A DNA stretch of 64,000 nt from Escherichia phage ALITA. How positions within the stretch are numbered: position 1 is the stretch's first letter; each line of letters opens with the position of its first letter. Positions 16,187-46,007 of this stretch are shown piece after piece. The stretch lies in sequence record PP359570; one strand, written 5' to 3'. The notes beneath the pieces are model-generated. The model was not told the DNA's origin and did not search any database. It saw only the letters and a list, made by a program, of their open reading frames with translations. Position numbers and translations under genes: made by a program.

Positions 16187-16780
16187 TTAAATTTTAAATT
16201 CTTCACTGTTAAATGAATCCAGTGTACGTACTTCTGGTTCTTTGGGAATGAAAACATCTTTTACAAAGCGGAACATAGGGAAACGTTCTGCCATTTTACG
16301 GACGTGTGCTTCTTTACCTGTGTATCGGTGATTAATAGTACAAATATTAGTTTTCAGTGCAAATTCAAAATCTGGATGATATACATAATTTTGACCGTCC
16401 CAGTAACACAGGCAAATAGCTACATCAAAGTTCCATACGATTTCACTGCGTACACCTTCTTCCATGATCATAAAGTTAAACTTAAGATCTTTATAGTATG
16501 CTTCAAATACCCATTTCAAATGTGGTAGTTCGGCATAAGTGTGTTCTGTTTGCTTAGTAAGTTGTTTAACATTACGTGCACCAACACCCAACATCAAAAA
16601 TTTCTCTACTAATACGAGTGTATTGTGGTTAGGCATACGCAAGTAAATGTCAATATCTTGCGCAGGTTTCTCTAATCGCCAGTCACGTACAGCGCCGCCA
16701 GCTACAATTGCAAACGGATCTACCAGTTGGCACATACGTAATACTTCTAAAGCTCGTACTTTTTGATCTTCAATATTCAT
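16187..16780 (-). CDS. Nucleotidyltransferase (pol-beta-like head domain; CCA-adding/poly(A)-polymerase family-like)
   Basis: 197 aa; motif FAIVAGGAVRDWRLEKPAQDIDIY resembling GGAVRD...DxD of tRNA nucleotidyltransferases. Confidence 0.55.
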   Translation of the reverse strand: MNIEDQKVRALEVLRMCQLVDPFAIVAGGAVRDWRLEKPAQDIDIYLRMPNHNTLVLVEKFLMLGVGARNVKQLTKQTEHTYAELPHLKWVFEAYYKDLKFNFMIMEEGVRSEIVWNFDVAICLCYWDGQNYVYHPDFEFALKTNICTINHRYTGKEAHVRKMAERFPMFRFVKDVFIPKEPEVRTLDSFNSEEFKI

Positions 16781-32814: not shown

Positions 32815-33792
32815 TTAAGCAACAGTCTGGTCTTCTTTTTCAGGGAAGATTAAACTTGCAATAACACCCAACCCAAGAGTACCTAACACAATATACATAC
32901 TGATCGTCGGATCAATGTGTGCTGGCAGGAAACTCACTTTTGCGTGCAGAGTTTCTGCAAACGGATGATACATCAGTTTTACACCCACAAACACCAGGAC
33001 TACGATAACTGCTTTCTCCAGATGAACCAAATACTTCAGTGCAACACTAAGAACAAAGAACAGAGCACGTAAACCTAAGATTGCACAAAGCATCGAAGAG
33101 AACACCAGCAGAGGTTCTTGTGTCACTGCAATTACTGCTGGAACAGAGTCTACTGCAAAGATTACGTCTACCATTTCCATTACAAACACACAAACCAGAG
33201 CCGGAGTTGCTACACGAACACCATTTTTGATTGTGAAGAACTTCTCACCATCCATCTGATCAGATACAGGGAACAGCTTACGAACAATACGAGTAGCCCA
33301 GTGTTTAGAGTAATCAATTTCTGCATCATTATCCCCAGCGAATACCATTTTAGCCGCACAGAAAAGGATGACAGCACCGAAGAAGATATTAACATACCAG
33401 CCCAAACTCAACAAGTAAGTACCTACTGCTACAAACACACCTCGGAAGACAATTGCACCTGCAATACCCCAAAGTAGAATCTTGTGCTGCAAGTGTGTGC
33501 TTTTAATACCAAAACTTGCGAAGACTGCCACAAATACTACTAAGTTATCTACAGAAAGAGATTTCTCCAACACATAACCACTCAAGAACAAGCTCGCAAA
33601 ATCAGCACCGTGTTGGAAGTATACAAAACCATAGTAGGCTAATGATACCCCAATCCAGAAAATTGACCAGCCAATTGCAGATTTAAATGAGATCTCTTTG
33701 TTTTCTCTGTGTCCAAAGAAGTCAATACAAATCGACAAGACTAAAATACCCACTAAAACAACCACATCAATAATTGGGAAACCCAGTTGCAT
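32815..33792 (-). CDS. TerC-family integral membrane protein
   Basis: 325 aa, multi-pass; motifs EKSLSVDNLVVFVAVF and IFAVDSVPAVIAVTQEPLLVFSSMLCAILGLRALFF. Confidence 0.85.
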   Translation of the reverse strand: MQLGFPIIDVVVLVGILVLSICIDFFGHRENKEISFKSAIGWSIFWIGVSLAYYGFVYFQHGADFASLFLSGYVLEKSLSVDNLVVFVAVFASFGIKSTHLQHKILLWGIAGAIVFRGVFVAVGTYLLSLGWYVNIFFGAVILFCAAKMVFAGDNDAEIDYSKHWATRIVRKLFPVSDQMDGEKFFTIKNGVRVATPALVCVFVMEMVDVIFAVDSVPAVIAVTQEPLLVFSSMLCAILGLRALFFVLSVALKYLVHLEKAVIVVLVFVGVKLMYHPFAETLHAKVSFLPAHIDPTISMYIVLGTLGLGVIASLIFPEKEDQTVA

Positions 33793-33810
33793 TCTTTTCT
33801 CCTCTTTAAT

Positions 33811-33829
33811 GCGGAGGACAATCCTCCGC
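33811..33829 (-). promoter_or_regulatory. Hairpin upstream of TerC gene
   Basis: GCGGAGGA-CAAT-CCTCCGC. Confidence 0.35.
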
Positions 33830-33869
33830 TCTATGTCTTATACTATAAACTGTTTTTAAAGAAAGTCAA

Positions 33870-34118
33870 CTAGTTCAGTTCTGTAATTTTAAGTTTATCT
33901 TCTTTGTTAATGATAGGGAAAGCTACAGCATCACCTACGTCATCAATAAAGCAAATAGCAATACCACCTTCCACTTTGCTAATCTGACCATTAAAGGCAT
34001 GATACGGGGCAGGAACTTGATCTCCATCTTCAAGGAGAATAGCCTCGTAAACCTTGCCGATAGTACAATCACGAGTGTTTCTAAATTTTTCAAGCACTTC
34101 AACATTTACTTTACGCAT
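33870..34118 (-). CDS. Hypothetical protein
   Basis: 82-aa ORF. Confidence 0.45.
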   Translation of the reverse strand: MRKVNVEVLEKFRNTRDCTIGKVYEAILLEDGDQVPAPYHAFNGQISKVEGGIAICFIDDVGDAVAFPIINKEDKLKITELN

Positions 34119-34132
34119 ATAAAAATCCTCTC

Positions 34133-34339
34133 TTATTTGTTAGATTGAAAGATACCACGAAGTACCGCAAGAATGAACGTCACACAGACTACACTCCAAA
34201 ACGTTACAGGAACATGATGCCAGTCTAAACCGATAATGTCAATCATATAGTTGTATGCTAAAAGCAGTAGCCAACTAGGGATTAACACAATCAAGAACAC
34301 AACAATAAAACAACCTAATACTGCTAAAACACCTGCCAT
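34133..34339 (-). CDS. Small two-helix membrane protein
   Basis: 68 aa, two TM segments. Confidence 0.45.
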   Translation of the reverse strand: MAGVLAVLGCFIVVFLIVLIPSWLLLLAYNYMIDIIGLDWHHVPVTFWSVVCVTFILAVLRGIFQSNK

Positions 34340-34348
34340 ACTTTCTCC

Positions 34349-35065
34349 TTATTTCAGTTTGTAAACAATTACATTTAAACCTTTGTTCACTAGAGTTTCT
34401 TCGATCATAAGTTTTACAATATTCCAAGAACCTCCAGCCAAACCACAACCAAGCATTGGTAAACCTACAATTTTACCGCCTGAAGATACAACATCGTCTC
34501 CCATACTATCTAACGCATTGTAGATAGCTTCATAATTCAGGTCACGCTTACCTTCCTCACGACGACTATAACCATATTGTCCATATAAATTATAAATTGT
34601 CAAATTGTTTTCTGTATATTTGGTAAACGTACCTAATTTTTTATAATCACCACGTTTAGTGGCACAATCTGCTTTAAACGCACCAGGCCACTTGCTTTTA
34701 ATTTTTGGTGCAATACCACTACCCATAGTGCAAAAACAGTTACAGCAGTGTGCTATAGCGTCTATATCGCCTCTCTCGGCTGCTGCTAAAAGATCACCGT
34801 ATACCTCAATGATACCTGCCGGATAACTTGTTACAATTTCATCTTCCCAATACATTTTCTCTACACCACCGATCAGTGCAAAGTTTTGTGTAATGCGATC
34901 ATCAATATAGTTAAGACCTGAAACATACACAGCGTATTCATCCTGTGCTGTAATACCTTGCACACGAATTCTTAAGACACCATCTTTATCTGTTGCTACA
35001 CGCCCAAAATCTTTTTCTGTAATATTGGTGATAGGATCTCCGAAAGTCATTACTTTATTAGACAT
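34349..35065 (-). CDS. Macro-domain-like protein (putative ADP-ribose/nucleotide-derivative processing)
   Basis: Start at ATG with SD AAAGGGG (MSNKVMTFGD...); DAIAHCCNCFCTMGSGIA resembles macro DAIVNAAN..GGGV block; later GLPMLGCGLAGG. Confidence 0.45.
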   Translation of the reverse strand: MSNKVMTFGDPITNITEKDFGRVATDKDGVLRIRVQGITAQDEYAVYVSGLNYIDDRITQNFALIGGVEKMYWEDEIVTSYPAGIIEVYGDLLAAAERGDIDAIAHCCNCFCTMGSGIAPKIKSKWPGAFKADCATKRGDYKKLGTFTKYTENNLTIYNLYGQYGYSRREEGKRDLNYEAIYNALDSMGDDVVSSGGKIVGLPMLGCGLAGGSWNIVKLMIEETLVNKGLNVIVYKLK

Positions 35066-35915
35066 AATAATCCCCTTTAACATTAGGTTTGTTGATAATG
35101 TTGCTTTCAAAAAATTGACGTAGGAAATCAAAGTTCTCTTTGTATTTTTCAATGTTATTGTAACCTTCTGCAAGGCAACCAAAGAACAGTTGTTCTACAT
35201 AATACAAAGGAAGTTGTGAAAGTGCAATTTTAAAATCAACTTCGCTTTGACTCATTAGATACTTAATAGGACGAACCAAACATTTAGCATCAGCTTCTTG
35301 CTTAATCATTTTAATAAAAGCTGCCAGATTATTGATATAGTTGAAGTTAAGTGCAGCTTCGGTGTTGGCTTCTGTACCTTCATACTTTGCAAAGTACAGG
35401 AAAAACGTATCGTTTTCAACACCTTCTTTGTCTAAAATTTCAATAAGTTTTTCTTCGTGTGTTCCTGTAATATTAACATCATCAATGAAAATCAGAGTTT
35501 TATTACCCCAGAAATCACGATTGATAGAGAAAGTGTCACCATCGATCAAAGCCTTACGATCTTCTTTGCTAAGAAATCCATAATCATTGATATAGCTCAC
35601 TTTACGATGAACGATATCCCACTCCACTGGTTTACCACCTTTGATAGAGATTAGGTAGTTGAGGTGATCTACAAAATGTTCAGATAACACTGTAGCTGCA
35701 TTTTTCACATAGTTATATGGAGATGGAATAACAACAAAACTTTCATTTACCAGTCGTTCTTCATACTTAGAAAAGAAACTTTCAGCCAGAATGCGCCCCA
35801 TTCTTTTTGCTGCCTGGTTACTACCAAACTTTAGTTTGGAATAATCTGCAATGTTAAATTTTGCTTCCTTCAGGTTAGTAAAAGTATTAGCAAAATGTTG
35901 AATTTGATTACGCAT
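35058..35915 (-). CDS. Phosphoribosyltransferase (PRTase) family protein
   Basis: 285 aa; PRPP-binding-type motif LIFIDDVNITGTH. Confidence 0.7.
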   Translation of the reverse strand: MRNQIQHFANTFTNLKEAKFNIADYSKLKFGSNQAAKRMGRILAESFFSKYEERLVNESFVVIPSPYNYVKNAATVLSEHFVDHLNYLISIKGGKPVEWDIVHRKVSYINDYGFLSKEDRKALIDGDTFSINRDFWGNKTLIFIDDVNITGTHEEKLIEILDKEGVENDTFFLYFAKYEGTEANTEAALNFNYINNLAAFIKMIKQEADAKCLVRPIKYLMSQSEVDFKIALSQLPLYYVEQLFFGCLAEGYNNIEKYKENFDFLRQFFESNIINKPNVKGDYYV

Positions 35916-36564
35916 TAATAAGTTCCTCTTTTTTAAGTTTAGCCAACAAGTCTTCTGGATTAATAATATGACAGAACTTCATCCCTATGTCAACAGCTTT
36001 TCCATCATAAATCAAACTATCTCCAACGTGTAAAATCTCTTCTGGTGCGAGATCAAACGTCACCATTTCATCAAAAGAGAGTTTAAAAAACCTAGGATCT
36101 GGTTTACACAAGCAAAACTCGTCAGAAAAATGCATAAAGTCAAATGGTAATTTTGTTAAGCCAGAATATACAGCTAAGAAACTACCTGGTACAAAATTAG
36201 TATTGCTCTTAATACTCAAAGAGTAGGTTGAACTTAGCTCTTCCAACTTCTTGCAAAGTTCAGGATTCAATGTTGGAGGATGTTTTATAAACATTGCCAA
36301 ACAATCTCTTTTTAACCCATCCACTTTATCAAGATCAATGTTCAAACGAGTAGAAAGTGTTACCCAAGCATCCTTAGACGTTCCACAAATGCCTTTTTCT
36401 GCTTTTAAATCCAAGAAAGTTTTTACCTCTTTGTATACGGTAGCTGCTTCTGCCTCAGAGCAAGAGGCATACTCGGCAATAACCTTGTTGCGCTCTTCTG
36501 CATACAAAGGGTTAGCAGTAATAAGAGTATTCCATACATCAAAAGAAATATGCTTAACAGTCAT
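35908..36564 (-). CDS. HAD-superfamily hydrolase (phosphatase-like)
   Basis: Start at ATG with SD GGAGG (MTVKHISFDVWNTL); HAD motif I FDVWNTL and motif IV HVGDSLIYD. Confidence 0.6.
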   Translation of the reverse strand: MTVKHISFDVWNTLITANPLYAEERNKVIAEYASCSEAEAATVYKEVKTFLDLKAEKGICGTSKDAWVTLSTRLNIDLDKVDGLKRDCLAMFIKHPPTLNPELCKKLEELSSTYSLSIKSNTNFVPGSFLAVYSGLTKLPFDFMHFSDEFCLCKPDPRFFKLSFDEMVTFDLAPEEILHVGDSLIYDGKAVDIGMKFCHIINPEDLLAKLKKEELINA

Positions 36565-36566
36565 TT

Positions 36567-36722
36567 TTAATCCTCCGTCCAAAAGAATATCATCTGCTTA
36601 ATTTTATTGATTTCTTGATGTAGTAACTTTCCAGCATGTGATTGATCTTTAATATTGACAGCAAGAATTTCAAGTTCCGTTAGTTTTTCTTGGATAGCTT
36701 TATATTCATCATCTGTAAGCAT
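36567..36722 (-). CDS. Small hypothetical protein
   Basis: 51 aa (below ORF-track cutoff); SD AAGGGGAAG; stop 2 nt before HAD gene start. Confidence 0.3.
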   Translation of the reverse strand: MLTDDEYKAIQEKLTELEILAVNIKDQSHAGKLLHQEINKIKQMIFFWTED

Positions 36723-38152: not shown

Positions 38153-38623
38153 TTAGTCAGATTCCCAAATGTTGTCTTTCTTAACCCACATTCGTTGATT
38201 ATCTGAACCTCTATAACGTTTCGTTGTTGGTTGATTCATATCATACTTACCATCTATCACTATGTCAACCAGTTTTTTAATTTTCTCTGGAATTTCTTCA
38301 AAAAGATATCCTGTATATAAGACAATATCTTTTTTGTTTCCAAAACAATCTCTTACCTTCTCAAGAACATACTCTACAGTGTCAATGTTCTCTTTGTCAA
38401 GAGGTTCACCACCTAAAACTGTTAATCCTTTAATGAAAGGTCGAGATAAATCTTCCAAGATAAGATCTAATGTTTCAGTAGTGAACTCTTGTCCGTAGTT
38501 ATACGACCAGGCTTTCTGGTTAAAGCAGCCACGGCAACCGTGGCTACAACCGCTCACCCACAAAGAGCATCTTACACCATCACCGTTGAGCATGTCAACA
38601 GGTTCATATCCGGCGTAATTCAA
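38153..38623 (-). CDS. nrdG: Anaerobic ribonucleotide reductase activating protein (radical SAM)
   Basis: 156 aa; CSHGCRGCFN CxxxCxxC cluster; immediately downstream of NrdD. Confidence 0.85.
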   Translation of the reverse strand: MNYAGYEPVDMLNGDGVRCSLWVSGCSHGCRGCFNQKAWSYNYGQEFTTETLDLILEDLSRPFIKGLTVLGGEPLDKENIDTVEYVLEKVRDCFGNKKDIVLYTGYLFEEIPEKIKKLVDIVIDGKYDMNQPTTKRYRGSDNQRMWVKKDNIWESD

Positions 38624-40419
38624 AAATGTTTCTCCCTTTCTAGTACCTCTTGCATTTTACCTTTATTATAAGGGCGAGAGTTAGGGGCAGAAAGGTATCC
38701 TGACACTCTTCTGATTACAGATATAGATTCTTCCTCATGATTGCCACAACTTGGACACTCGAAGCCTTTAGCTGTTGCCTTAAATTCACCATGAAAACCA
38801 CATTTGAAACACTGATCTACAGGTTGGTTCACGCCAAAATAAGGAATTTTGTTGTAGGCATAATCTACAAGAGTTTCCAGTGCTTGCAAGTTATTTTTAA
38901 GGTTTGGTGTTTCTACATAACCTATGTTCCCACCGTTACTGATTTGTGCAAAACCTTCCTCATAATCCCACTTTTGGAACGGGGTAGTGTGCATCCACAC
39001 AGGTTGATGGAAAGAGTTTGTCAAGTAGTCACGATCAATAGAACCAGGATAGCGATCATTTAATGCTTTGGCAAATTTATAGCACAAGGATTCTGCTGGT
39101 GTTCCATACAAACTAAAAGCTAAACCAGAACGTTCTTTAAATGTGCCACAGATATCCTTCATATATTGAAGGATGTTTTTACCCATTGCTTTTGGATTGG
39201 TGTTACCTGGGTATAAAATCTCCATAGCTTCTGCTAAACCTACATAACCGATACTAATAGAGGCATAACCACCTTCAAATAGTTTACCAATCTCTTCATT
39301 AGCTTCTAGTCGAGCTAAAGCCCCTTCCATAAACAATGTAGGGTTTTGAGATGCTTTGGTATGTCTAATACGGTTAACACGTAGCATATGTGCCTTATAC
39401 GCCACCTCCATATGTTGTTCCAACAGTTCAGTAAATAAGATGCCCTTTTCACGGGACTCTGCTGCAATGATAGGTAAGTTTAAAGAAACTACGCCTAAGT
39501 TGAAACGACCATCATATTTTTCACCTTGCTCTGTTGCATAGTATGACAAGAAGCTACGGCAACCCATGCTTGTGACGCGACCATCTGAAGATCCTGTAAC
39601 TTCTTTATTTAAAGGTACAGAGATAAAATCAGGATAAATGCGTTCAGCACAACACTCCATTGCCAGTTGCTTCAAATCATAGTTTGGATCGCCAGCTTTC
39701 ATGTTAACACCATCTTCCAAGAAGAAGATAACTTTAGGAAACACAGGAGTTACCCTATCTTTTCCCAATCCTTGTTTGTGCACCATTAGGTAGTTTTTAG
39801 TGATCATTCTACCAAAAGCAGAGGTATCCAAACCTAAACTAATTGTTATAAAAGGTGACTGACCATTTACACTCATTAGAGTGTTCACCTGGTAGATTAA
39901 AGTTTGCATTGCATCATAGACCTGTTTATCTACCATACGCATAGCAATATCATAATCGCCAACATCGGCATATATTTTATTAAAACTTGCTTTAACGTAT
40001 TGACTAAGCCCAGTATCAACATGTGCACAAGTTTGTCCACCATATTGGCTAGAAGCTACTGCTTGAATAATTTGAGTTAGGACAGTAGTCGCTACACCGA
40101 TAGATTTTGGTTTTTCAATATGTGCATTACCAATACGGAAACCGTTCTCAAGCATATCTTGGTAATTTACCAGGCAACAATTAGTTAAAGGTGAGAGTAA
40201 ATAATCTAAATCGTGAATGTGACCATACCCACTTTTATGCCATTCTGCCAGATCTTCCGGTAAAATATGGGTCATTGCCATGTGCTTGCTTAGGATACCT
40301 GCTAGTAAGTCTCGGTGAGTATTAACAATCATTGCAGGTTTGTTTGCATTTTCACGAGTAAATTCTTCGGATGTTTGTTCGAGGAATCCGATTACATCCT
40401 CATATAGTTTTTGGGTCAT
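38620..40419 (-). CDS. nrdD: Anaerobic ribonucleoside-triphosphate reductase
   Basis: C-terminal zinc ribbon CFKCGF...CPSCGN and glycyl-radical motif RRVSGY; start set at ATG with SD GGAGG (MTQKLYEDV). Confidence 0.9.
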   Translation of the reverse strand: MTQKLYEDVIGFLEQTSEEFTRENANKPAMIVNTHRDLLAGILSKHMAMTHILPEDLAEWHKSGYGHIHDLDYLLSPLTNCCLVNYQDMLENGFRIGNAHIEKPKSIGVATTVLTQIIQAVASSQYGGQTCAHVDTGLSQYVKASFNKIYADVGDYDIAMRMVDKQVYDAMQTLIYQVNTLMSVNGQSPFITISLGLDTSAFGRMITKNYLMVHKQGLGKDRVTPVFPKVIFFLEDGVNMKAGDPNYDLKQLAMECCAERIYPDFISVPLNKEVTGSSDGRVTSMGCRSFLSYYATEQGEKYDGRFNLGVVSLNLPIIAAESREKGILFTELLEQHMEVAYKAHMLRVNRIRHTKASQNPTLFMEGALARLEANEEIGKLFEGGYASISIGYVGLAEAMEILYPGNTNPKAMGKNILQYMKDICGTFKERSGLAFSLYGTPAESLCYKFAKALNDRYPGSIDRDYLTNSFHQPVWMHTTPFQKWDYEEGFAQISNGGNIGYVETPNLKNNLQALETLVDYAYNKIPYFGVNQPVDQCFKCGFHGEFKATAKGFECPSCGNHEEESISVIRRVSGYLSAPNSRPYNKGKMQEVLEREKHF

Positions 40420-40436
40420 TAATCCTCCGTGGAAAA

Positions 40437-40460
40437 TAAAAGCCAGCATTAAGCTGGCTT
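40437..40460 (-). terminator. Hairpin terminator upstream of nrdD
   Basis: AAAAGCCAGC-ATTA-AGCTGGCTTT. Confidence 0.5.
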
Positions 40461-40508
40461 TAGGGTGGATCTTTATTTTAAATCTTTTTCGTAAGATTGT
40501 CCTTGATC

Positions 40509-41459
40509 TTAGTCAAGGTTTTTGGTAATACGTGTACAACCATCAGAAGTCAAACCGTCAACTTGAGTTTCCCAAGTGCCATGAATATTTCGGAACAATG
40601 TTGTTACACCTTTTGGTTCATTAATAATGATTGCCATAACAAGTTTAGGATCGATAACAGACATAATCTTTTCCTCAATACCCTCTGTAATAACATTATT
40701 ACGCACAATATTAATTACATCTTCTTGTACAGAAAGGGTACTTACGTTCTTAAGAGTATATACCTGCTGCGTAGTGTAAATGATACGAACATAACTTACA
40801 GAACGAGTAGGCACAGGTTTACGCGGTCGGCGAAAACGTGGTTTTGGTGAAGATTCAGTCTTACTTTCATTTTTTGAATAATACTCCTCAAACAGTTTAG
40901 TAAATGTTTTTACATCAACTACAAACCGATCTTTCCTATATGGAGAATTCTTATGTGCACCATTAATACCACTGTTTTCATCGAAGAAAGTAATGTTTTC
41001 TTCAGTTGAATATGTTAGATAATGGTCTGCATCTTTCCAATGTGGTTGTGGACAATGCGGATTACAAACGGAAAGCAGATAACTAATATCTTCTTCCGTT
41101 GCACTAGTATCCAGGAAACACGTATTATGCACAGTCAGTTCTACTTTTGCAACCATATCCATTTCTTTATCCTCGTTGGCAAGATATTCAGTACGAATAA
41201 TCTCCAGAAAACCTTCAGGTGTTACTTCCATAAATGTGTATTCAGGGTGAAGTTCCATATATTCAAATCCACAACCATCTAATTGCTGTAGGAAGTTAGG
41301 ATAGAAGAACAAATCATTAACACTGTGAATCAGATCATTGATTTCTGCTTCAGTTGTGTAACCAAAACTCTTGTGAATTGCTTCGTTAAGAATATGCAGG
41401 ATACCCATCTCTTCTGCTGCTTTTTTAACTTCCAGTTTATTAGCGTAAAATGCAATCAT
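40509..41459 (-). CDS. Hypothetical protein
   Basis: 316-aa ORF. Confidence 0.5.
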   Translation of the reverse strand: MIAFYANKLEVKKAAEEMGILHILNEAIHKSFGYTTEAEINDLIHSVNDLFFYPNFLQQLDGCGFEYMELHPEYTFMEVTPEGFLEIIRTEYLANEDKEMDMVAKVELTVHNTCFLDTSATEEDISYLLSVCNPHCPQPHWKDADHYLTYSTEENITFFDENSGINGAHKNSPYRKDRFVVDVKTFTKLFEEYYSKNESKTESSPKPRFRRPRKPVPTRSVSYVRIIYTTQQVYTLKNVSTLSVQEDVINIVRNNVITEGIEEKIMSVIDPKLVMAIIINEPKGVTTLFRNIHGTWETQVDGLTSDGCTRITKNLD

Positions 41460-41476
41460 TATGTTCTCCTTCTAAA

Positions 41477-41911
41477 TTAGTTTAAAATTTCTTTTGCAAT
41501 GGTAGAAGCAAGTTTTCCATCATATTGATTCGGATACTCTGCTTTAAGGTGTTTCATCATATCTGGCATTTTCTTGCCTGTCAAGGCAAATTCTTCAGCA
41601 ATAGCTCGAAGATCATCTTCAGATAGCATTTCTGGCAAATATTTTTCCAGAGTGGTGATATCACGCATAGCTCGCTCACACTTGCTAATGGAGGCATTAA
41701 CTTTCTTAAGCGAGTCTAGTTCCTCTTTAGCGTGTGCAATACCAATCTTAACAATGTTAATCATAATATCGTCTTCTGATTTGTTTAGATTTGCCTTTTG
41801 AGTACGAGCAAGGTCAAACTCACCAATAATATTAGTTAACAAAGCAAAAGCACCTTTATCGGTTGTACGTGCTAAGATACGATCTGCTTTCATTTGTGTC
41901 ACAATAGACAT
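41477..41911 (-). CDS. GatB/YqeY-domain protein
   Basis: 144 aa; alignable to B. subtilis YqeY (LEKYLPEMLSEDDLRAIA; YDGKLASTIAKEIL). Confidence 0.7.
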   Translation of the reverse strand: MSIVTQMKADRILARTTDKGAFALLTNIIGEFDLARTQKANLNKSEDDIMINIVKIGIAHAKEELDSLKKVNASISKCERAMRDITTLEKYLPEMLSEDDLRAIAEEFALTGKKMPDMMKHLKAEYPNQYDGKLASTIAKEILN

Positions 41912-41923
41912 TCTATTCTCCTC

Positions 41924-42496
41924 TTATTTGCTAATGCTTTGAATCTTATTTACAACACGGTTTATTGCCAGTGAAGCCCTAGGCTCCGCAATACCTGTTG
42001 CATAGATATAAGGATGACCTCTTGGAGACTCCCTCATACCGAATGAACCTAATTCTAAACCATATTTATCCTCTACGTCAACCCCAATATTAGTGGGTAC
42101 TAAATATGTTTTAACTCCATAATAAGTAGAGAAGAAACAGCGCATAGCGTTAGCATACTCTTCAATTGTAGCATCAGGGTAGAACTCAATCAACTCCAAT
42201 TTCAAGAAAATATTGAAATGAGTGTCATCTAAATTTTCTTCTGTACGGTAACATGGTGTTAGTGCCATATAAGGATTACCTGCTGCAAATTCAAAACCAT
42301 CCTTCTCCATTTGCAGGAAAGATTGTTCTGCACTGGCTACATAGTATTTACCGTTAGGATGCCCTAATGGGCGATCCTCTTTATTTTCTGGTAGTGTGTA
42401 CGCCAGTATATCAGCATCCACGAGATATGGAACTTCCAACATTTGTGCAAACCGACCATAGTAATCAATAGCTTGAGCTATTACTTCAACATTCAT
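41924..42496 (-). CDS. Class II aminoacyl-tRNA-synthetase-like catalytic-core fragment (function unknown)
   Basis: 190 aa; motif-2-like CYRTEENLDDTHFNIFLKLELIEF and motif-3-like GLELGSFGMRESPRG. Confidence 0.45.
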   Translation of the reverse strand: MNVEVIAQAIDYYGRFAQMLEVPYLVDADILAYTLPENKEDRPLGHPNGKYYVASAEQSFLQMEKDGFEFAAGNPYMALTPCYRTEENLDDTHFNIFLKLELIEFYPDATIEEYANAMRCFFSTYYGVKTYLVPTNIGVDVEDKYGLELGSFGMRESPRGHPYIYATGIAEPRASLAINRVVNKIQSISK

Positions 42497-42744
42497 GAGC
42501 GACCTCCATTGCGGAATGCACGTTTAGTAATGTTCGACATAGTGATCAAATCTTGAAGCGTCATATCAGGAAAATGCTGTTCAAGAACACCTTCAACAGC
42601 GCCTACAATATCTGATAACTCAATAAGTTGCATCAGCTTGCAATCTTGATCAATAGCATCCTGAAGTTCATAAAGCTCTTCTTGAATTTTAGCAATAGAA
42701 CCATATTCCTCTTTGCTAATCTCCTTCAAATGATACCCTGCCAC
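42493..42744 (-). CDS. MazG-like nucleotide pyrophosphohydrolase (small)
   Basis: 83 aa; EExxE-type acidic helices (EEYGSIAKIQEELYELQDAI). Confidence 0.45.
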   Translation of the reverse strand: MAGYHLKEISKEEYGSIAKIQEELYELQDAIDQDCKLMQLIELSDIVGAVEGVLEQHFPDMTLQDLITMSNITKRAFRNGGRS

Positions 42745-42754
42745 TTTAACCCCC

Positions 42755-45529
42755 TTAGTTTACCAGTTTATTTATATCTGGTAAAAGATTTATTTCACCT
42801 AAGAAATCACCTTCACCTTCCTCTAGCCAACTCTCATATGCTTGTGCATGATTATAGTTACCATCAAAAGAATCTGCAACAAATTTTTCTACAGTTTTTC
42901 GAGATGTGCCAGCACCAAATACACCAAGTTTAATACCATTGATCGGTAAAGTGGTGCTTGTGGGTACTTTCTCTGTTGCAACACGGTTGATATCTATAAT
43001 CTCCTGTACGGTTGTGTTCCATTGTAAGCATTTAACACAACGGGTATGCGCTACATACAGTAGGTTTCGCTCTGCCTCTTCCAGTCCTACCCATTCACCA
43101 GTCTTTTTATCATAGTTGGAAGGAAAATCATTAGCAACAATAACCTGATCCCACTCCAAACCTTTAGACTTGTGTGCTGTAGTCAGTGTGACTTTTGCTG
43201 TAGGAGAATTTCTATGCGTTCTAAGTGTATGTGCTATAGTGTTTGCCTTACCAGAAACTACGATGTTTAACAAGCGTTTAGCATCTGGATCAGCCTCTGC
43301 ACACTCAACAAATTCATCCCAGTCTGCGTAAGGTAATACAGTTTCATGTTTTACTTTCTCAATATCTCCTCTCCGAAGAGCATTAACACTATCTACCATA
43401 GAGATAAAATCCCTGGTATCTACGTTAATAATAATTTCTTCCCCATCTGCAATACGATCCATTGCCTCCATAAGCAAGGTTAAATTCTTGCGAAAGATGA
43501 TAGTGTAAGGTTTTGTATAGTCTACAACATCTGATTTGTAGCTACCTACTACAGTATCAAAGCCTTTACCAACCAAAGGATGACGCAAAGGTTCTTTATC
43601 GCTTAAAATCATATTGGCAATGTTTGCCACTTTGGGGCCAAAACGGAAGCAAGCAGTTAATGGAAGTTCTGCCCCATACTTAGCTGTTTCAATCATCATA
43701 TTAGAGCTACCTCTAAATTGATAAATGCAGTTGTGGCTAAGAATTTCATTGCCAAAGAAGTTAGCAGTATCCTCTACTTCAATATCATAATAGATACCCT
43801 CACTATCTACAATGTCCACAATCTCTTCTGCCGTTACAGTATCACCATCTTTTACCAACACAGACATGCCTTTAAACAAACCCGCTGCCGGAATTAAGTT
43901 ATATTTGGCACTGTTCACAGAGGACATGCATTCTTTTAAAGATGCAAACGGAACTATTTCAAGGATCTTTTGTGCAAAACTCAATGCTTCACGATAAGAA
44001 TTGAAATATTTACGTACACGGTAACGACCTTCCAATTTAGCAGCACTTACGCTTACACCTGCTTTAATCAGTGAAGAATAGATCGGCATTTCACTTTCTG
44101 TCCACTCAAAACTAACTTGTGTTCCTTTACAACCTTGTGCTCGCAAAGTCACTGTTAGCATTTTTCTTTCATCTACTGCACAATTGATGCTGTGCCAGTG
44201 TGGATAAGCAAAATGATAATCTTTATCCTCTAAAAGTTTAAAACCATTTTGTCCGAATTGTTCAAAGATGTTATTGATCCTTTCTTGATTAATGCCGCGT
44301 GAACTTGCTTCAAATACACAAGTAGGAATGCCATATTGTAAACTGTAAGCCATTTCTTTTTCCATAGCAGCTTCACGGTTTTCAACAATATCCAACACCC
44401 ATAATTTCTGTGCTTTTTCAGAACGTGTACGTTGCCCCAGTTTAGAAAAACCTTCTTTATCATCGAATTTGTTAGTGATCCCTACTCGGAAACCTAAATC
44501 TTTCCTCCACATTAGGTATACCACCATCTGATCATCTTTCAGAACATAGGATGAAGCCCAAATACGATGGTTATGTGTCATATCTAAAGTTTTACCTGTG
44601 GCAGTAATAATATTCCTACCTTTTGTACGTGTAGATAAAGTCTTATTTGTTACTTTTCTAAATGTAACTTTACCATTAGAATAAGACTCTACCTTATCAC
44701 CGATTTGCAGGTCTTTCATTGTAACCTGACCATTCTCGGTATTAAGTACCGTGTTTTCCGACACACATTGGAATTCATCGCCCACTACCACAATTTGTTT
44801 TGCAGATTTAGCATTTCGCAGAATAGACAAGAATGCAGGGTTAACATCCTGGAATTCATCACCAAAAATAATATCATAACCAAGATCAGCACCAGACAAT
44901 TCAAACAATTTTACATAGGTGTCATGCGTCATTAAAGTATCTGTGTTAGGATCGATGCGCTCTCGCCACAATTGTTTTGCATACTTAACTACTTCTGTAA
45001 TTAGTTTGTGTTCGTTAATACCTTTTCTTTTAATATCTGCAAGATGTACACTAGGAAAATGTTTACGGCTGATAAAAGGATCATCCGAAAATTCAAACTT
45101 ACCTACGGTTTGCTTGATCATTAAACCGATCATAGCACGAGTTAAAAGTGTTTTACCTCGTTTATCAATAAGATTATTAATCTTAAATTTCTTTGCTATC
45201 TCACTACCTGTACCTGCAACGTTAACATACTGTCCTTCTGGTCGTGACAGTTTTGCACGTAAACGATGATCCAGGAATTGATAGCAAATAGAATGCAATG
45301 TACGGCATTCTACATTTAGTGGCATCTTACGTCGTGCTTCTTCTGCCATGCTTTTATTGAAAGCTAAGTAAAGAATGCGATCTTCTGTACTGTTAGCCAG
45401 CAAATAAAGTGTTGACGTTTTGCCTGATCCAGATTTAGCTTGGATAGTTAAAAAGCGATGGTCTGGAAAAGCCTCCTTAATAGCTGTTTGCTCTTCTGTT
45501 GGAGTGAAGCTCAACTCTTTCTTAGCCAT
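42755..45529 (-). CDS. UvrD/Rep-family SF1 helicase interrupted by an intein
   Basis: Walker A AKSGSGKTS; motif II IFGDEFQDVN; motif III split as VVVGDEFQ | intein | CIYQFRGS; start set at ATG with SD (MAKKELS). Confidence 0.85.
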   Translation of the reverse strand: MAKKELSFTPTEEQTAIKEAFPDHRFLTIQAKSGSGKTSTLYLLANSTEDRILYLAFNKSMAEEARRKMPLNVECRTLHSICYQFLDHRLRAKLSRPEGQYVNVAGTGSEIAKKFKINNLIDKRGKTLLTRAMIGLMIKQTVGKFEFSDDPFISRKHFPSVHLADIKRKGINEHKLITEVVKYAKQLWRERIDPNTDTLMTHDTYVKLFELSGADLGYDIIFGDEFQDVNPAFLSILRNAKSAKQIVVVGDEFQCVSENTVLNTENGQVTMKDLQIGDKVESYSNGKVTFRKVTNKTLSTRTKGRNIITATGKTLDMTHNHRIWASSYVLKDDQMVVYLMWRKDLGFRVGITNKFDDKEGFSKLGQRTRSEKAQKLWVLDIVENREAAMEKEMAYSLQYGIPTCVFEASSRGINQERINNIFEQFGQNGFKLLEDKDYHFAYPHWHSINCAVDERKMLTVTLRAQGCKGTQVSFEWTESEMPIYSSLIKAGVSVSAAKLEGRYRVRKYFNSYREALSFAQKILEIVPFASLKECMSSVNSAKYNLIPAAGLFKGMSVLVKDGDTVTAEEIVDIVDSEGIYYDIEVEDTANFFGNEILSHNCIYQFRGSSNMMIETAKYGAELPLTACFRFGPKVANIANMILSDKEPLRHPLVGKGFDTVVGSYKSDVVDYTKPYTIIFRKNLTLLMEAMDRIADGEEIIINVDTRDFISMVDSVNALRRGDIEKVKHETVLPYADWDEFVECAEADPDAKRLLNIVVSGKANTIAHTLRTHRNSPTAKVTLTTAHKSKGLEWDQVIVANDFPSNYDKKTGEWVGLEEAERNLLYVAHTRCVKCLQWNTTVQEIIDINRVATEKVPTSTTLPINGIKLGVFGAGTSRKTVEKFVADSFDGNYNHAQAYESWLEEGEGDFLGEINLLPDINKLVN
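43730..44767 (-). mobile_element. Intein (~346 aa) inserted in helicase motif III, with a central putative homing-endonuclease region
   Basis: N-terminal Cys (CVSENTVL), block B TxxH (LDMTHNH), C-terminal ...FFGNEILSHN followed by extein Cys. Confidence 0.7.
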
Positions 45530-45530
45530 T

Positions 45531-46007
45531 TCAACCTCTCTTAATTTGTTTAACAAGCATAGGAACAAAGTCTCGTTTTAAAATTTGTTCAATAATATGA
45601 TCAGGTAGCTGTTGGAAATTATAATTAAAAGCTACTGTCTCACCTTTAGGCGTTTCTACCCGCACATATAACATGTTACGAAGTTTATCAACTTGTGCTG
45701 TATATTCTAAACCATGTAATTGATGTAATGCAAACATCAAATCATCAGTTTCAGTTTGGAATCTATCCCTTCCCTGCATCAAGGACAAGGAAAAAGGTAG
45801 ATTTTCCCTAAGAGCCACCTTCTTAGGAACTAGTGAAGGAAAATACTCACCAATAACTTCCTGTGTAAGCTGGATACACTCTTTTTCAAGTTGGTTTTGT
45901 TCCTTAAGTTCACAAACACTTTTTTGTAAAGTGTTAACCTCTTTTTGCAAAGCTGCTAGTTGAGCACTTAACTTTCTTTTTTGATTACGACCAAAACGTT
46001 TAGACAT
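45531..46007 (-). CDS. Hypothetical coiled-coil protein
   Basis: 158-aa ORF. Confidence 0.5.
   Translation of the reverse strand: MSKRFGRNQKRKLSAQLAALQKEVNTLQKSVCELKEQNQLEKECIQLTQEVIGEYFPSLVPKKVALRENLPFSLSLMQGRDRFQTETDDLMFALHQLHGLEYTAQVDKLRNMLYVRVETPKGETVAFNYNFQQLPDHIIEQILKRDFVPMLVKQIKRG

Follow-up and report, generated by a model that had tools for sequence, protein, structure and literature searches.

A two-gene phage cassette of a minimal class II aminoacyl-tRNA synthetase-like core and a MazG/HisE-type protein, as found in Escherichia phage ALITA

The locus and its synthetase-like core

Three small genes lie next to each other on the minus strand of the 64,000-nt stretch of Escherichia phage ALITA (sequence record PP359570) analysed here, which we call the window. 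They encode an 83-aa protein of the MazG/HisE type (p83), a 190-aa protein resembling the catalytic core of a class II aminoacyl-tRNA synthetase (aaRS), and a 144-aa protein with a YqeY domain (Table 1). An earlier interpretation made from the letters of the window (the sequence-only reading) had described the open reading frames (ORFs) of the 190-aa and 144-aa proteins, both of which are present as given, and had joined the two into a split tRNA-acting enzyme. We are confident that a different association holds at this locus, namely that of a core similar to seryl-tRNA synthetase (SerRS) with the MazG-type protein. The TGA stop codon of the p83 gene overlaps the ATG start codon of the 190-aa gene in an ATGA at 42493-42496, with a GGAGG upstream.

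The 190-aa protein has 57 homologues by k-mer search and 1,429 clusters (50% identity) at E<1e-10 in the full-database search. It falls into PHROG 4806 'histidyl tRNA synthetase' (E 3e-71), and both GenBank and PHROGs already call the family 'seryl/histidyl tRNA synthetase'. No Pfam or NCBIfam family, including tRNA-synt_2b and Seryl_tRNA_N, matched the protein above threshold. A single-sequence search of the PDB returned a chance match to FGF1 only and was discarded in favour of a profile. The profile built from 40 homologues matched class II synthetases only, the best being Aquifex SerRS (2dq3, E 8.4e-5), followed by AspRS and PylRS. In the alignment to SerRS, VPYLV falls on motif 1, SAEQSF on the TAE segment and TPCYRxE...F.K.E on motif 2. 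The same register was obtained with hhalign against an E. coli SerRS sequence (88% probability, E 3e-6; residues 14-149 covered, the last few columns probably slipping by one strand). The antiparallel beta-sheet with flanking helices that forms the catalytic fold of the class II aaRS superfamily is present, and profile and structure comparison agree in this. The 190-aa protein belongs to this superfamily by fold and by motifs, as the sequence-only reading had held.

Motif 1 is V-P23-Y-L-V, aligned with that of SerRS, and P23 is at least 90% conserved. Motif 2, CYRTEENLDDTHFNIFLKLE, had been assigned correctly in the earlier interpretation; it reads Y-R84-x-E86...H93...F97...E101, in which R84, F97 and E101 are invariant in the alignment of 40 members and H93 is conserved in at least 90% of them. 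The segment S55-A-E57-Q-S-F aligns with the SerRS TAE segment. The stretch that had been named as motif 3, GLELGSFGMRESPRG, is not that motif, as it forms a strand (148-156) preceding the strand-helix element that carries the invariant R173. The candidate motif 3 is instead Y-A-T167-G-I-A-E-P-R173-A-S, located where strand 162-171 passes into helix 173-189. Its pattern in the family, G/A-T167-G-L/I-A-E-P-R173, resembles the SerRS GSGLAVGR. We take E148-x-x-S151 to match the Mg/ATP-binding Glu-x-x-Ser of SerRS, and T167 presumably matches the SerRS Thr that lies six residues before the motif 3 Arg and contacts the serine hydroxyl. The residues assigned to the ATP/Mg site (R84 and F97 in motif 2, E148 with S151, and R173 in the candidate motif 3) do not vary across the 40 diverse members.

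The protein begins about 20 residues before motif 1 and has no N-terminal arm and no tRNA-binding or anticodon-binding domain. Compared with SerRS, the motif 2 loop has lost about 6 residues and is acidic (ENLDD), and the chain between motifs 2 and 3 is stripped of its insertions. The whole family is acidic (median isoelectric point 4.85, net charge -10), and no conserved basic residues were found in it besides those assigned to the class II motifs and the ATP site. The earlier remark that 190 residues are too few for a full synthetase is borne out by the missing tRNA-binding appendage. Neither the N-terminal coiled-coil arm nor a full catalytic domain passing curated models, as in canonical SerRS, was found in the protein, and neither was a match to a HisRS-specific family model nor the C-terminal anticodon-binding domain of HisRS. 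Because it is devoid of tRNA-binding domains and passes no curated model, we do not count it as a member of the SerRS or the HisRS family. The labels 'seryl/histidyl tRNA synthetase' and, for the adjacent gene, 'tRNA amidotransferase' or 'aspartyl/glutamyl-tRNA synthetase' overstate what this locus contains. In Citromicrobium phage RXM the SerRS label was taken literally, and the g121 product was described as charging tRNA-Ser (PMC8953757).

A true but extremely reduced SerRS, keeping tRNA-Ser charged and maybe making use of a host-SerRS dimer or of p83, would fit part of these data. The closest relatives in sequence and structure are SerRSs, the segments VPYLV, SAE (for TAE), TPCYRxE and GTGLAEPR resemble SerRS motifs, and motif 1, which forms the dimer interface in class II enzymes, is conserved; some phages have tRNA arrays with a tRNA-Ser close to the gene. 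However, SerRS needs its N-terminal coiled-coil arm to recognise the long variable arm of tRNA-Ser, and it is this arm that the phage protein does not have. The shortened acidic motif 2 loop, the strongly acidic character of the whole protein and the failure of any Pfam aaRS family to reach threshold also speak against a working SerRS, while the diversity of the hosts (Bacillus, Caulobacter, Acinetobacter) argues against a heterodimer with the host enzyme. We therefore regard a miniature SerRS as unlikely.

Compared to the catalytic domain of SerRS (class IIa), the 190-aa protein differs by the missing arm, the reduced motif 2 loop, the lost insertions and its coupling to a MazG-type protein. 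The tRNA-independent class II paralogues, which include the Bll0957 (PDB 3mey) carrier-protein ligases, HisZ, AsnA and EpmA/GenX, are cellular proteins of 275-380 aa; the phage family is smaller and essentially viral, has motifs nearer to those of SerRS and is linked to a MazG-type enzyme. We know of no such paralogue that is paired or fused with a MazG/HisE-type hydrolase. By likeness to HisZ, which serves HisG, the 190-aa protein might be a non-catalytic regulatory or ligand-sensing subunit that binds an amino acid or an aminoacyl-nucleotide-like signal and controls or targets p83. Yet the class II ATP/Mg-binding residues are degenerate in HisZ, whereas all of them are invariant in the alignment of the phage family, and a purely regulatory role appears very improbable to us.

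The MazG/HisE-type partner p83

The p83 protein belongs to PHROG 6408, whose function label is 'unknown', and its relatives form 2,061 clusters in the full-database search. Ten residues are invariant among 38 diverse members: Y4, H5, K19, E22, E23, E26, E42, D45, F77 and R82. Five of them make up the metal-binding motifs EExxE (E22, E23, E26) and ExxD (E42, D45), which lie on consecutive helices. Such a pair is the signature of the all-alpha nucleoside triphosphate (NTP) pyrophosphohydrolases (MazG, HisE, dimeric dUTPase). Pfam searches of the family gave PRA-PH in 32 of the 38 members and MazG in 4, all below cut-off (best PRA-PH E 2.2e-4). The best real matches in the PDB profile search were HisE (2a7w) and the MazG-like 1vmg, with the acidic catalytic motifs aligned. 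The AlphaFold2 (AF2) model of p83 is a three-helix unit with a pLDDT of 90, and the top 7 Foldseek matches to it in the PDB were all HisE or MazG proteins (best probability 0.95, E 0.68). Some GenBank submitters independently name p83 relatives 'MazG-type nucleotide pyrophosphohydrolase-like fold' or 'phosphoribosyl-ATP pyrophosphatase'. At three loci (L020, L031 and L038, the first two from Acinetobacter T4-like phages) the frame with the p83 domain runs about 120-127 residues further at its C-terminal end, ahead of the aaRS-like gene; the MazG-type module of that lineage may carry a further domain there.

The association of the two genes was assessed in 64 viral loci with relatives of the 190-aa protein (28-98% identity, contigs of 9-578 kb), the ORFs of which were searched with the four local proteins. 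The p83 gene was found beside the aaRS-like gene in 61 of the 64 loci in a first pass. Coordinates from hidden Markov model searches placed it on the same strand in 60 of the 62 viral loci outside the phi92-like phages: 35 directly upstream (<=60 nt), 18 further upstream, 4 downstream and 3 fused; in the other 2 of the 62, no p83 was found within 4 kb. The record counts in a curated phage collection are similar for the two genes (272 for the aaRS-like gene, 262 for p83), including by host genus (Escherichia 111/112, Caulobacter 13/13, Pectobacterium 10/10, Cronobacter 8/8, with matching counts for Brevundimonas, Klebsiella and Erwinia as well). The reverse test, starting from p83 relatives, gave an aaRS-like ORF as the next ORF in every case examined (a 1.04-Mb contig, contigs of 117-291 kb, Bacillus phage BpSp and Pectobacterium phage PcCB7V).

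Natural fusions, with the aaRS-like core at the N-terminal and p83 at the C-terminal end, account for 9 of the 14 longer proteins retrieved among the top 150 family representatives, and further ones were seen at loci L056, L058, L060, L071, L076 and L080. A scan of 185,579 species genomes yielded 15 aaRS-like matches, all of them on contigs of metagenome-assembled genomes (MAGs), with p83 in 13 of the 15 and fused in three, and no clear cellular context for the aaRS-like gene. On account of these 15 MAG loci in so large a set, the family is essentially viral. Since p83 and the aaRS-like protein are joined into one polypeptide in other phages and on MAG contigs, the two very probably act as one complex. 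When all ORFs of 65 loci were clustered, no third conserved gene emerged around the pair; the larger clusters were antisense shadow ORFs, and the next real family occurred in 8 loci. We found no paper on the pair, its fusion or the minimal core as a family in the literature searched.

Two loci show further variation around the pair. In PcCB7V (L067, 10883-11886) an insertion of about 1 kb with two ORFs, which have no Pfam hits and one of which is on the opposite strand, separates the p83 and aaRS-like genes. In the near-identical phage phiTE the genes are directly adjacent, and the insertion looks like a recent mobile one. In the 1.04-Mb JGI contig (L084, 5835-6611) a gene of the R2K_3 ATP-grasp family lies directly downstream of the cassette on the opposite strand, as a single instance. 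The R2K_3 family was predicted in a survey of jumbo phages to conjugate aminoacyl moieties to proteins (PMC7824862).

A relative of p83 has probably been purified already. In the preprint 10.1101/2022.06.09.495361, ORFs flanking phage nucleotidyltransferase genes were screened, and a protein named Atd1 was obtained from PcCB7V. Purified Atd1 was reported to dephosphorylate ppGpp with an apparent Km of ~50 uM and to act neither on ribonucleoside triphosphates (rNTPs) nor on c-di-GMP; in cells it reportedly lowered (p)ppGpp and relieved TIR-STING and retron-TIR toxicity. According to the supplement of the preprint, the PcCB7V nucleotidyltransferase is QQG33502.1. The only MazG/HisE-annotated ORF within 9 kb of it is QQG33500.1 ('phosphoribosyl-ATP pyrophosphatase'), and none of the 11 hypothetical ORFs scanned nearest to the PcCB7V cassette has a MazG-type Pfam match. 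QQG33500.1 is a member of the p83 family, lies two genes downstream of QQG33502.1 and is followed, after the 1-kb insertion, by a 'seryl-tRNA synthetase' gene; its near-identical phiTE orthologue has ~49% identity to p83. As QQG33500.1 is the sole ORF found near the nucleotidyltransferase with a MazG/HisE-type annotation and belongs to the p83 family, it is very probably Atd1, which would make Atd1 an orthologue of p83.

Atd1 and p83 are alike in being short and in consisting of one MazG-type domain that bears two acidic motifs. Atd1 was treated in the preprint as a stand-alone enzyme, and a term search of the text does not find the word 'synthetase', whereas p83, known here from its sequence, is paired with an aaRS-like gene. 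The same source names uncharged tRNA as the trigger of RelA. A variant of the miniature-SerRS explanation can be built on this: with tRNA-Ser kept charged and a (p)ppGpp-degrading p83 at its side, the stringent response would be suppressed both at its trigger and at its signal. The activity of Atd1 on ppGpp speaks for such a variant, to which we give as little credence as to the reduced SerRS itself.

The YqeY gene and the wider neighbourhood

The assignment of the 144-aa neighbour to the YqeY type was sound, as the protein (PHROG 1460) matches Pfam YqeY PF09424 above cut-off (E 5.3e-7, 30.3 bits vs. a cut-off of 27, residues 38-143). This domain is the one found at the C-terminal end of GatB; the GatB catalytic part is absent from the 144-aa protein, and no other significant Pfam or NCBIfam match was obtained. 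Databases nevertheless list the protein under 'tRNA amidotransferase' or 'aspartyl/glutamyl-tRNA synthetase'.

According to the sequence-only reading, the aaRS-like core would supply the chemistry and the YqeY protein the tRNA binding of a split enzyme that charges, recharges or repairs tRNA, for example after the action of anticodon nucleases. The physical arrangement it relied on is real: in phi92-like phages the two genes lie side by side in the same orientation, with a spacing of 12 nt and no intervening terminator. YqeY-type domains are also described in PMC1865053 and PMC2811023 as enhancing tRNA binding in Deinococcus GlnRS and GatB. Further, the T5-like Vibrio phage Thalassa has a YqeY-like gene in the middle of its tRNA array, within a stretch of 14 genes (L089, 2896-3339); this context supports a function of phage YqeY proteins in connection with tRNA that does not involve the aaRS-like family. 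The functional part of the proposal does not hold up, however. The YqeY gene adjoins the aaRS-like gene only in the phi92-like loci L001-L003 and was not found within 4-6 kb of it in any of the 76 other loci, including the 15 MAG loci, even by iterated profile search. The phyletic distributions also differ, as YqeY occurs in 151 phage records, mainly of Vibrio and T5-like phages that have no aaRS-like gene. In Klebsiella phage KP2025, a YqeY of 78% identity occupies the corresponding position near the helicase, and neither an aaRS-like nor a p83 gene lies within 3 kb. No fusion of the aaRS-like protein with YqeY was seen, whereas fusions with p83 are common, and the 12-nt gap contains GAGGAG, the YqeY gene's own ribosome-binding site. 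The conserved partner is p83, and a split enzyme of the two downstream proteins is quite improbable. The 144-aa protein is no conserved part of the module of aaRS-like protein and p83; it is probably an independent tRNA-related accessory factor and a lineage-specific downstream neighbour.

The same interpretation had connected the locus with a nucleotidyltransferase encoded at 16187-16780 (minus strand, 197 aa). This link is weak, as the protein gave only sub-threshold matches to the head domain of PolyA_pol/CCA-adding enzymes (Pfam E 0.0017, NCBIfam E 0.01) and its gene lies 25 kb away. It is also far below the size of a CCA-adding enzyme and unrelated to the RlaP-type nucleotidyltransferase encoded near Certrevirus cassettes. 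On the basis of the sub-threshold matches, the distance and the lack of kinship with the Certrevirus enzyme, we rejected this ORF as part of a tRNA system with the cassette. No tRNA genes were found in the window.

The window comes from a phi92-like Escherichia phage (Justusliebigvirus, Stephanstirmvirinae), and the 5.2-kb stretch around the locus is 98.8% identical to phage VEcB and 98.4% identical to the BASEL phage PaulScherrer/Bas60. The genes listed in Table 1 form a tight co-oriented run on the minus strand (38620-45568) in the order helicase, p83, 190-aa protein, 144-aa protein, 316-aa protein and NrdD. Promoter and terminator scans of 38-47 kb performed no better than shuffled sequences, and no terminator was found within the run.

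Table 1. Genes of the minus-strand run around the cassette (window coordinates)
Feature	Position	Strand	Basis
UvrD-type helicase with intein	42755-45568	-	ORF and Pfam
p83, 83-aa MazG/HisE-type (all-alpha NTP pyrophosphohydrolase) protein	42493-42744	-	ORF, motifs, profiles, AF2; probable Atd1 orthologue
190-aa minimal class II aaRS-type catalytic core, nearest SerRS	41924-42496	-	ORF, profile, fold
144-aa YqeY-domain protein	41477-41911	-	Pfam PF09424, PHROG 1460
316-aa ORF	40509-41459	-	PHROG 15930 match
NrdD	38620-40449	-	ORF

The UvrD/Rep-type helicase is interrupted by an intein between residues ~267 and 613 (Pfam Intein_splicing, Hint). The intein is annotated in phage PaulScherrer as well, and a 594-aa intein-free version is encoded at locus L002, so some relatives apparently do not have the insertion. 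The 316-aa protein matches PHROG 15930 'ribonucleotide reductase' (E 6e-178) and has no Pfam or NCBIfam match; the label looks unsupported. It occurs beside the aaRS-like gene only in near-identical phages, with one weak match in a further locus. Elsewhere in the window, at 32815-36582 (minus strand), a row of genes encodes the membrane protein TerC (PF03741, E 1e-38), a protein with a macro domain, a PRTase_3 of the ComF-like type (PF15610, E 1e-41) and a HAD hydrolase. The arrangement, found here in a phage genome, resembles that of a Ter-associated module for which synthesis of a nucleoside-like metabolite has been predicted. A functional link between this row and the cassette was dropped, as these genes are not conserved beside the cassette elsewhere. 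Four records labelled 'Campylobacter phage' with C. jejuni as host (MG065639, MG065645, MG065656 and MG065689) are ~98% identical over the 5.2-kb query; their host label is probably a mislabel or reflects contamination.

Possible roles of the cassette

In the explanation that we prefer, the unit is a two-gene, phage-specific cassette (41924-42744, minus strand) in which p83 would be translationally coupled to a SerRS-like, adenylate-forming enzyme. The aaRS-like core would bind ATP together with a small polar amino acid, for instance serine, and form an aminoacyl-adenylate; serine is suggested because the SerRS-like S-A-E, E86 and T167 positions are retained. Given the missing arm and anticodon domain, the short acidic motif 2 loop and the net charge of about -10, the core would hardly recognise tRNA unaided, and its acceptor is likelier to be a small molecule or a nucleotide, or tRNA only with help. 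The partner p83 would hydrolyse ppGpp, as reported for Atd1, and the target of the cassette in the infected cell would be alarmone or nucleotide signalling, in the service of host takeover or counter-defence. Its ligase might either remove the trigger or, together with p83, make or consume a nucleotide derivative. In phi92-like phages, the YqeY gene would be an added, separately translated, tRNA-related accessory gene of the same transcription unit. Taken as a whole, a SerRS-like ligase and p83 serving host takeover or counter-defence has in our judgement about an even chance of being correct; the alarmone and counter-defence role, taken by itself, is put forward tentatively from the sequence comparisons and the likeness to Atd1.

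Several observations weigh against this explanation. The sub-profile of the C-terminal part (residues 126-182) found no aaRS in the PDB, and the SerRS equivalences of motif 3 and of E148, S151 and T167 are drawn from the residue pattern, the AF2 secondary structure and the roles of the SerRS residues. The catalytic activities of both proteins encoded in the window are predicted ones. The identity of Atd1 with QQG33500.1 is deduced, the preprint giving no accession for Atd1, and the ppGpp activity of Atd1 comes from a single report. Claims about substrates of MazG-type proteins call for caution, because a cyanophage MazG does not hydrolyse magic-spot nucleotides according to the title of Rihtman 2019, as cited in PMC8953757. 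Moreover, tRNA genes occur <=4 kb from the cassette in 13 of 60 loci, several times with the cassette inside the array, and Certrevirus phages encode a CCA-adding enzyme and a peptidyl-tRNA hydrolase near it. These neighbours keep a residual possibility of a direct role in tRNA metabolism or translation alive.

A different partition of the chemistry would place the pair in a nucleotide-pool or DNA-modification pathway, with p83 converting (d)NTP to (d)NMP, a reaction carried out by T4 gp56 and MazZ, and the ligase adding an amino acid to a nucleotide or a nucleotide derivative. In the window the cassette does lie between the UvrD-type helicase and NrdD/NrdG. In phage RXM the 'SerRS' gene g121 and the two MazG genes g118 and g119 are numbered close to those of a dNMP kinase (Gp115) and ThyX (Gp116) (PMC8953757), and MazG-like triphosphatases were suggested to degrade unmodified NTPs (PMC7824862). 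The 65 clustered loci, however, contain no conserved DNA-modification or nucleotide-metabolism neighbour, and Atd1 was reported inactive on rNTPs. This pathway seems to us improbable on balance. To our knowledge, amino-acid-modified DNA has not been reported from phi92- or rV5-like phages either, which counts against it too.

A bolder reading of the data can also be formulated. In it, the paired or fused proteins would together work as an enzyme, independent of tRNA, that produces, alters or degrades a conjugate of amino acid and nucleotide or a derivative of an alarmone. We consider this reading rather unlikely, and the same holds for the examples that come to mind, i.e., adenylylation or aminoacylation of (p)ppGpp, or action on immune signals of the amino-acid-ADP-ribose (ADPR) type.

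Part of what is described here was known before: the gene carries aaRS-like annotations, and its partner is probably a published protein. The pair, its fusion and the minimal family are apparently undescribed. The family, comprising 1,400 or more clusters (50% identity) and found essentially in big phages of Proteobacteria, Firmicutes and Cyanobacteria hosts, would rank among the smallest natural class II cores (~175-200 aa). It would join AsnA, EpmA, HisZ and the carrier-protein ligases as a further instance of the repeated recruitment of class II cores for non-translational chemistry. The pairing with a MazG/HisE-type hydrolase corrects database names that genome papers have taken at face value. 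Because the aaRS-like core is near-obligately coupled or fused to this hydrolase, Atd1 was probably studied without its natural partner. Although the specific mechanism offered by the sequence-only reading is unsupported, the locus deserves more attention than a wrongly annotated synthetase fragment would. If the pair does act on (p)ppGpp or related signals, amino-acid activation would be tied to the control of the stringent response or of abortive infection, and if it handles amino-acid-nucleotide conjugates, it would represent a widespread, previously unrecognised phage counter-defence chemistry built on a synthetase core.

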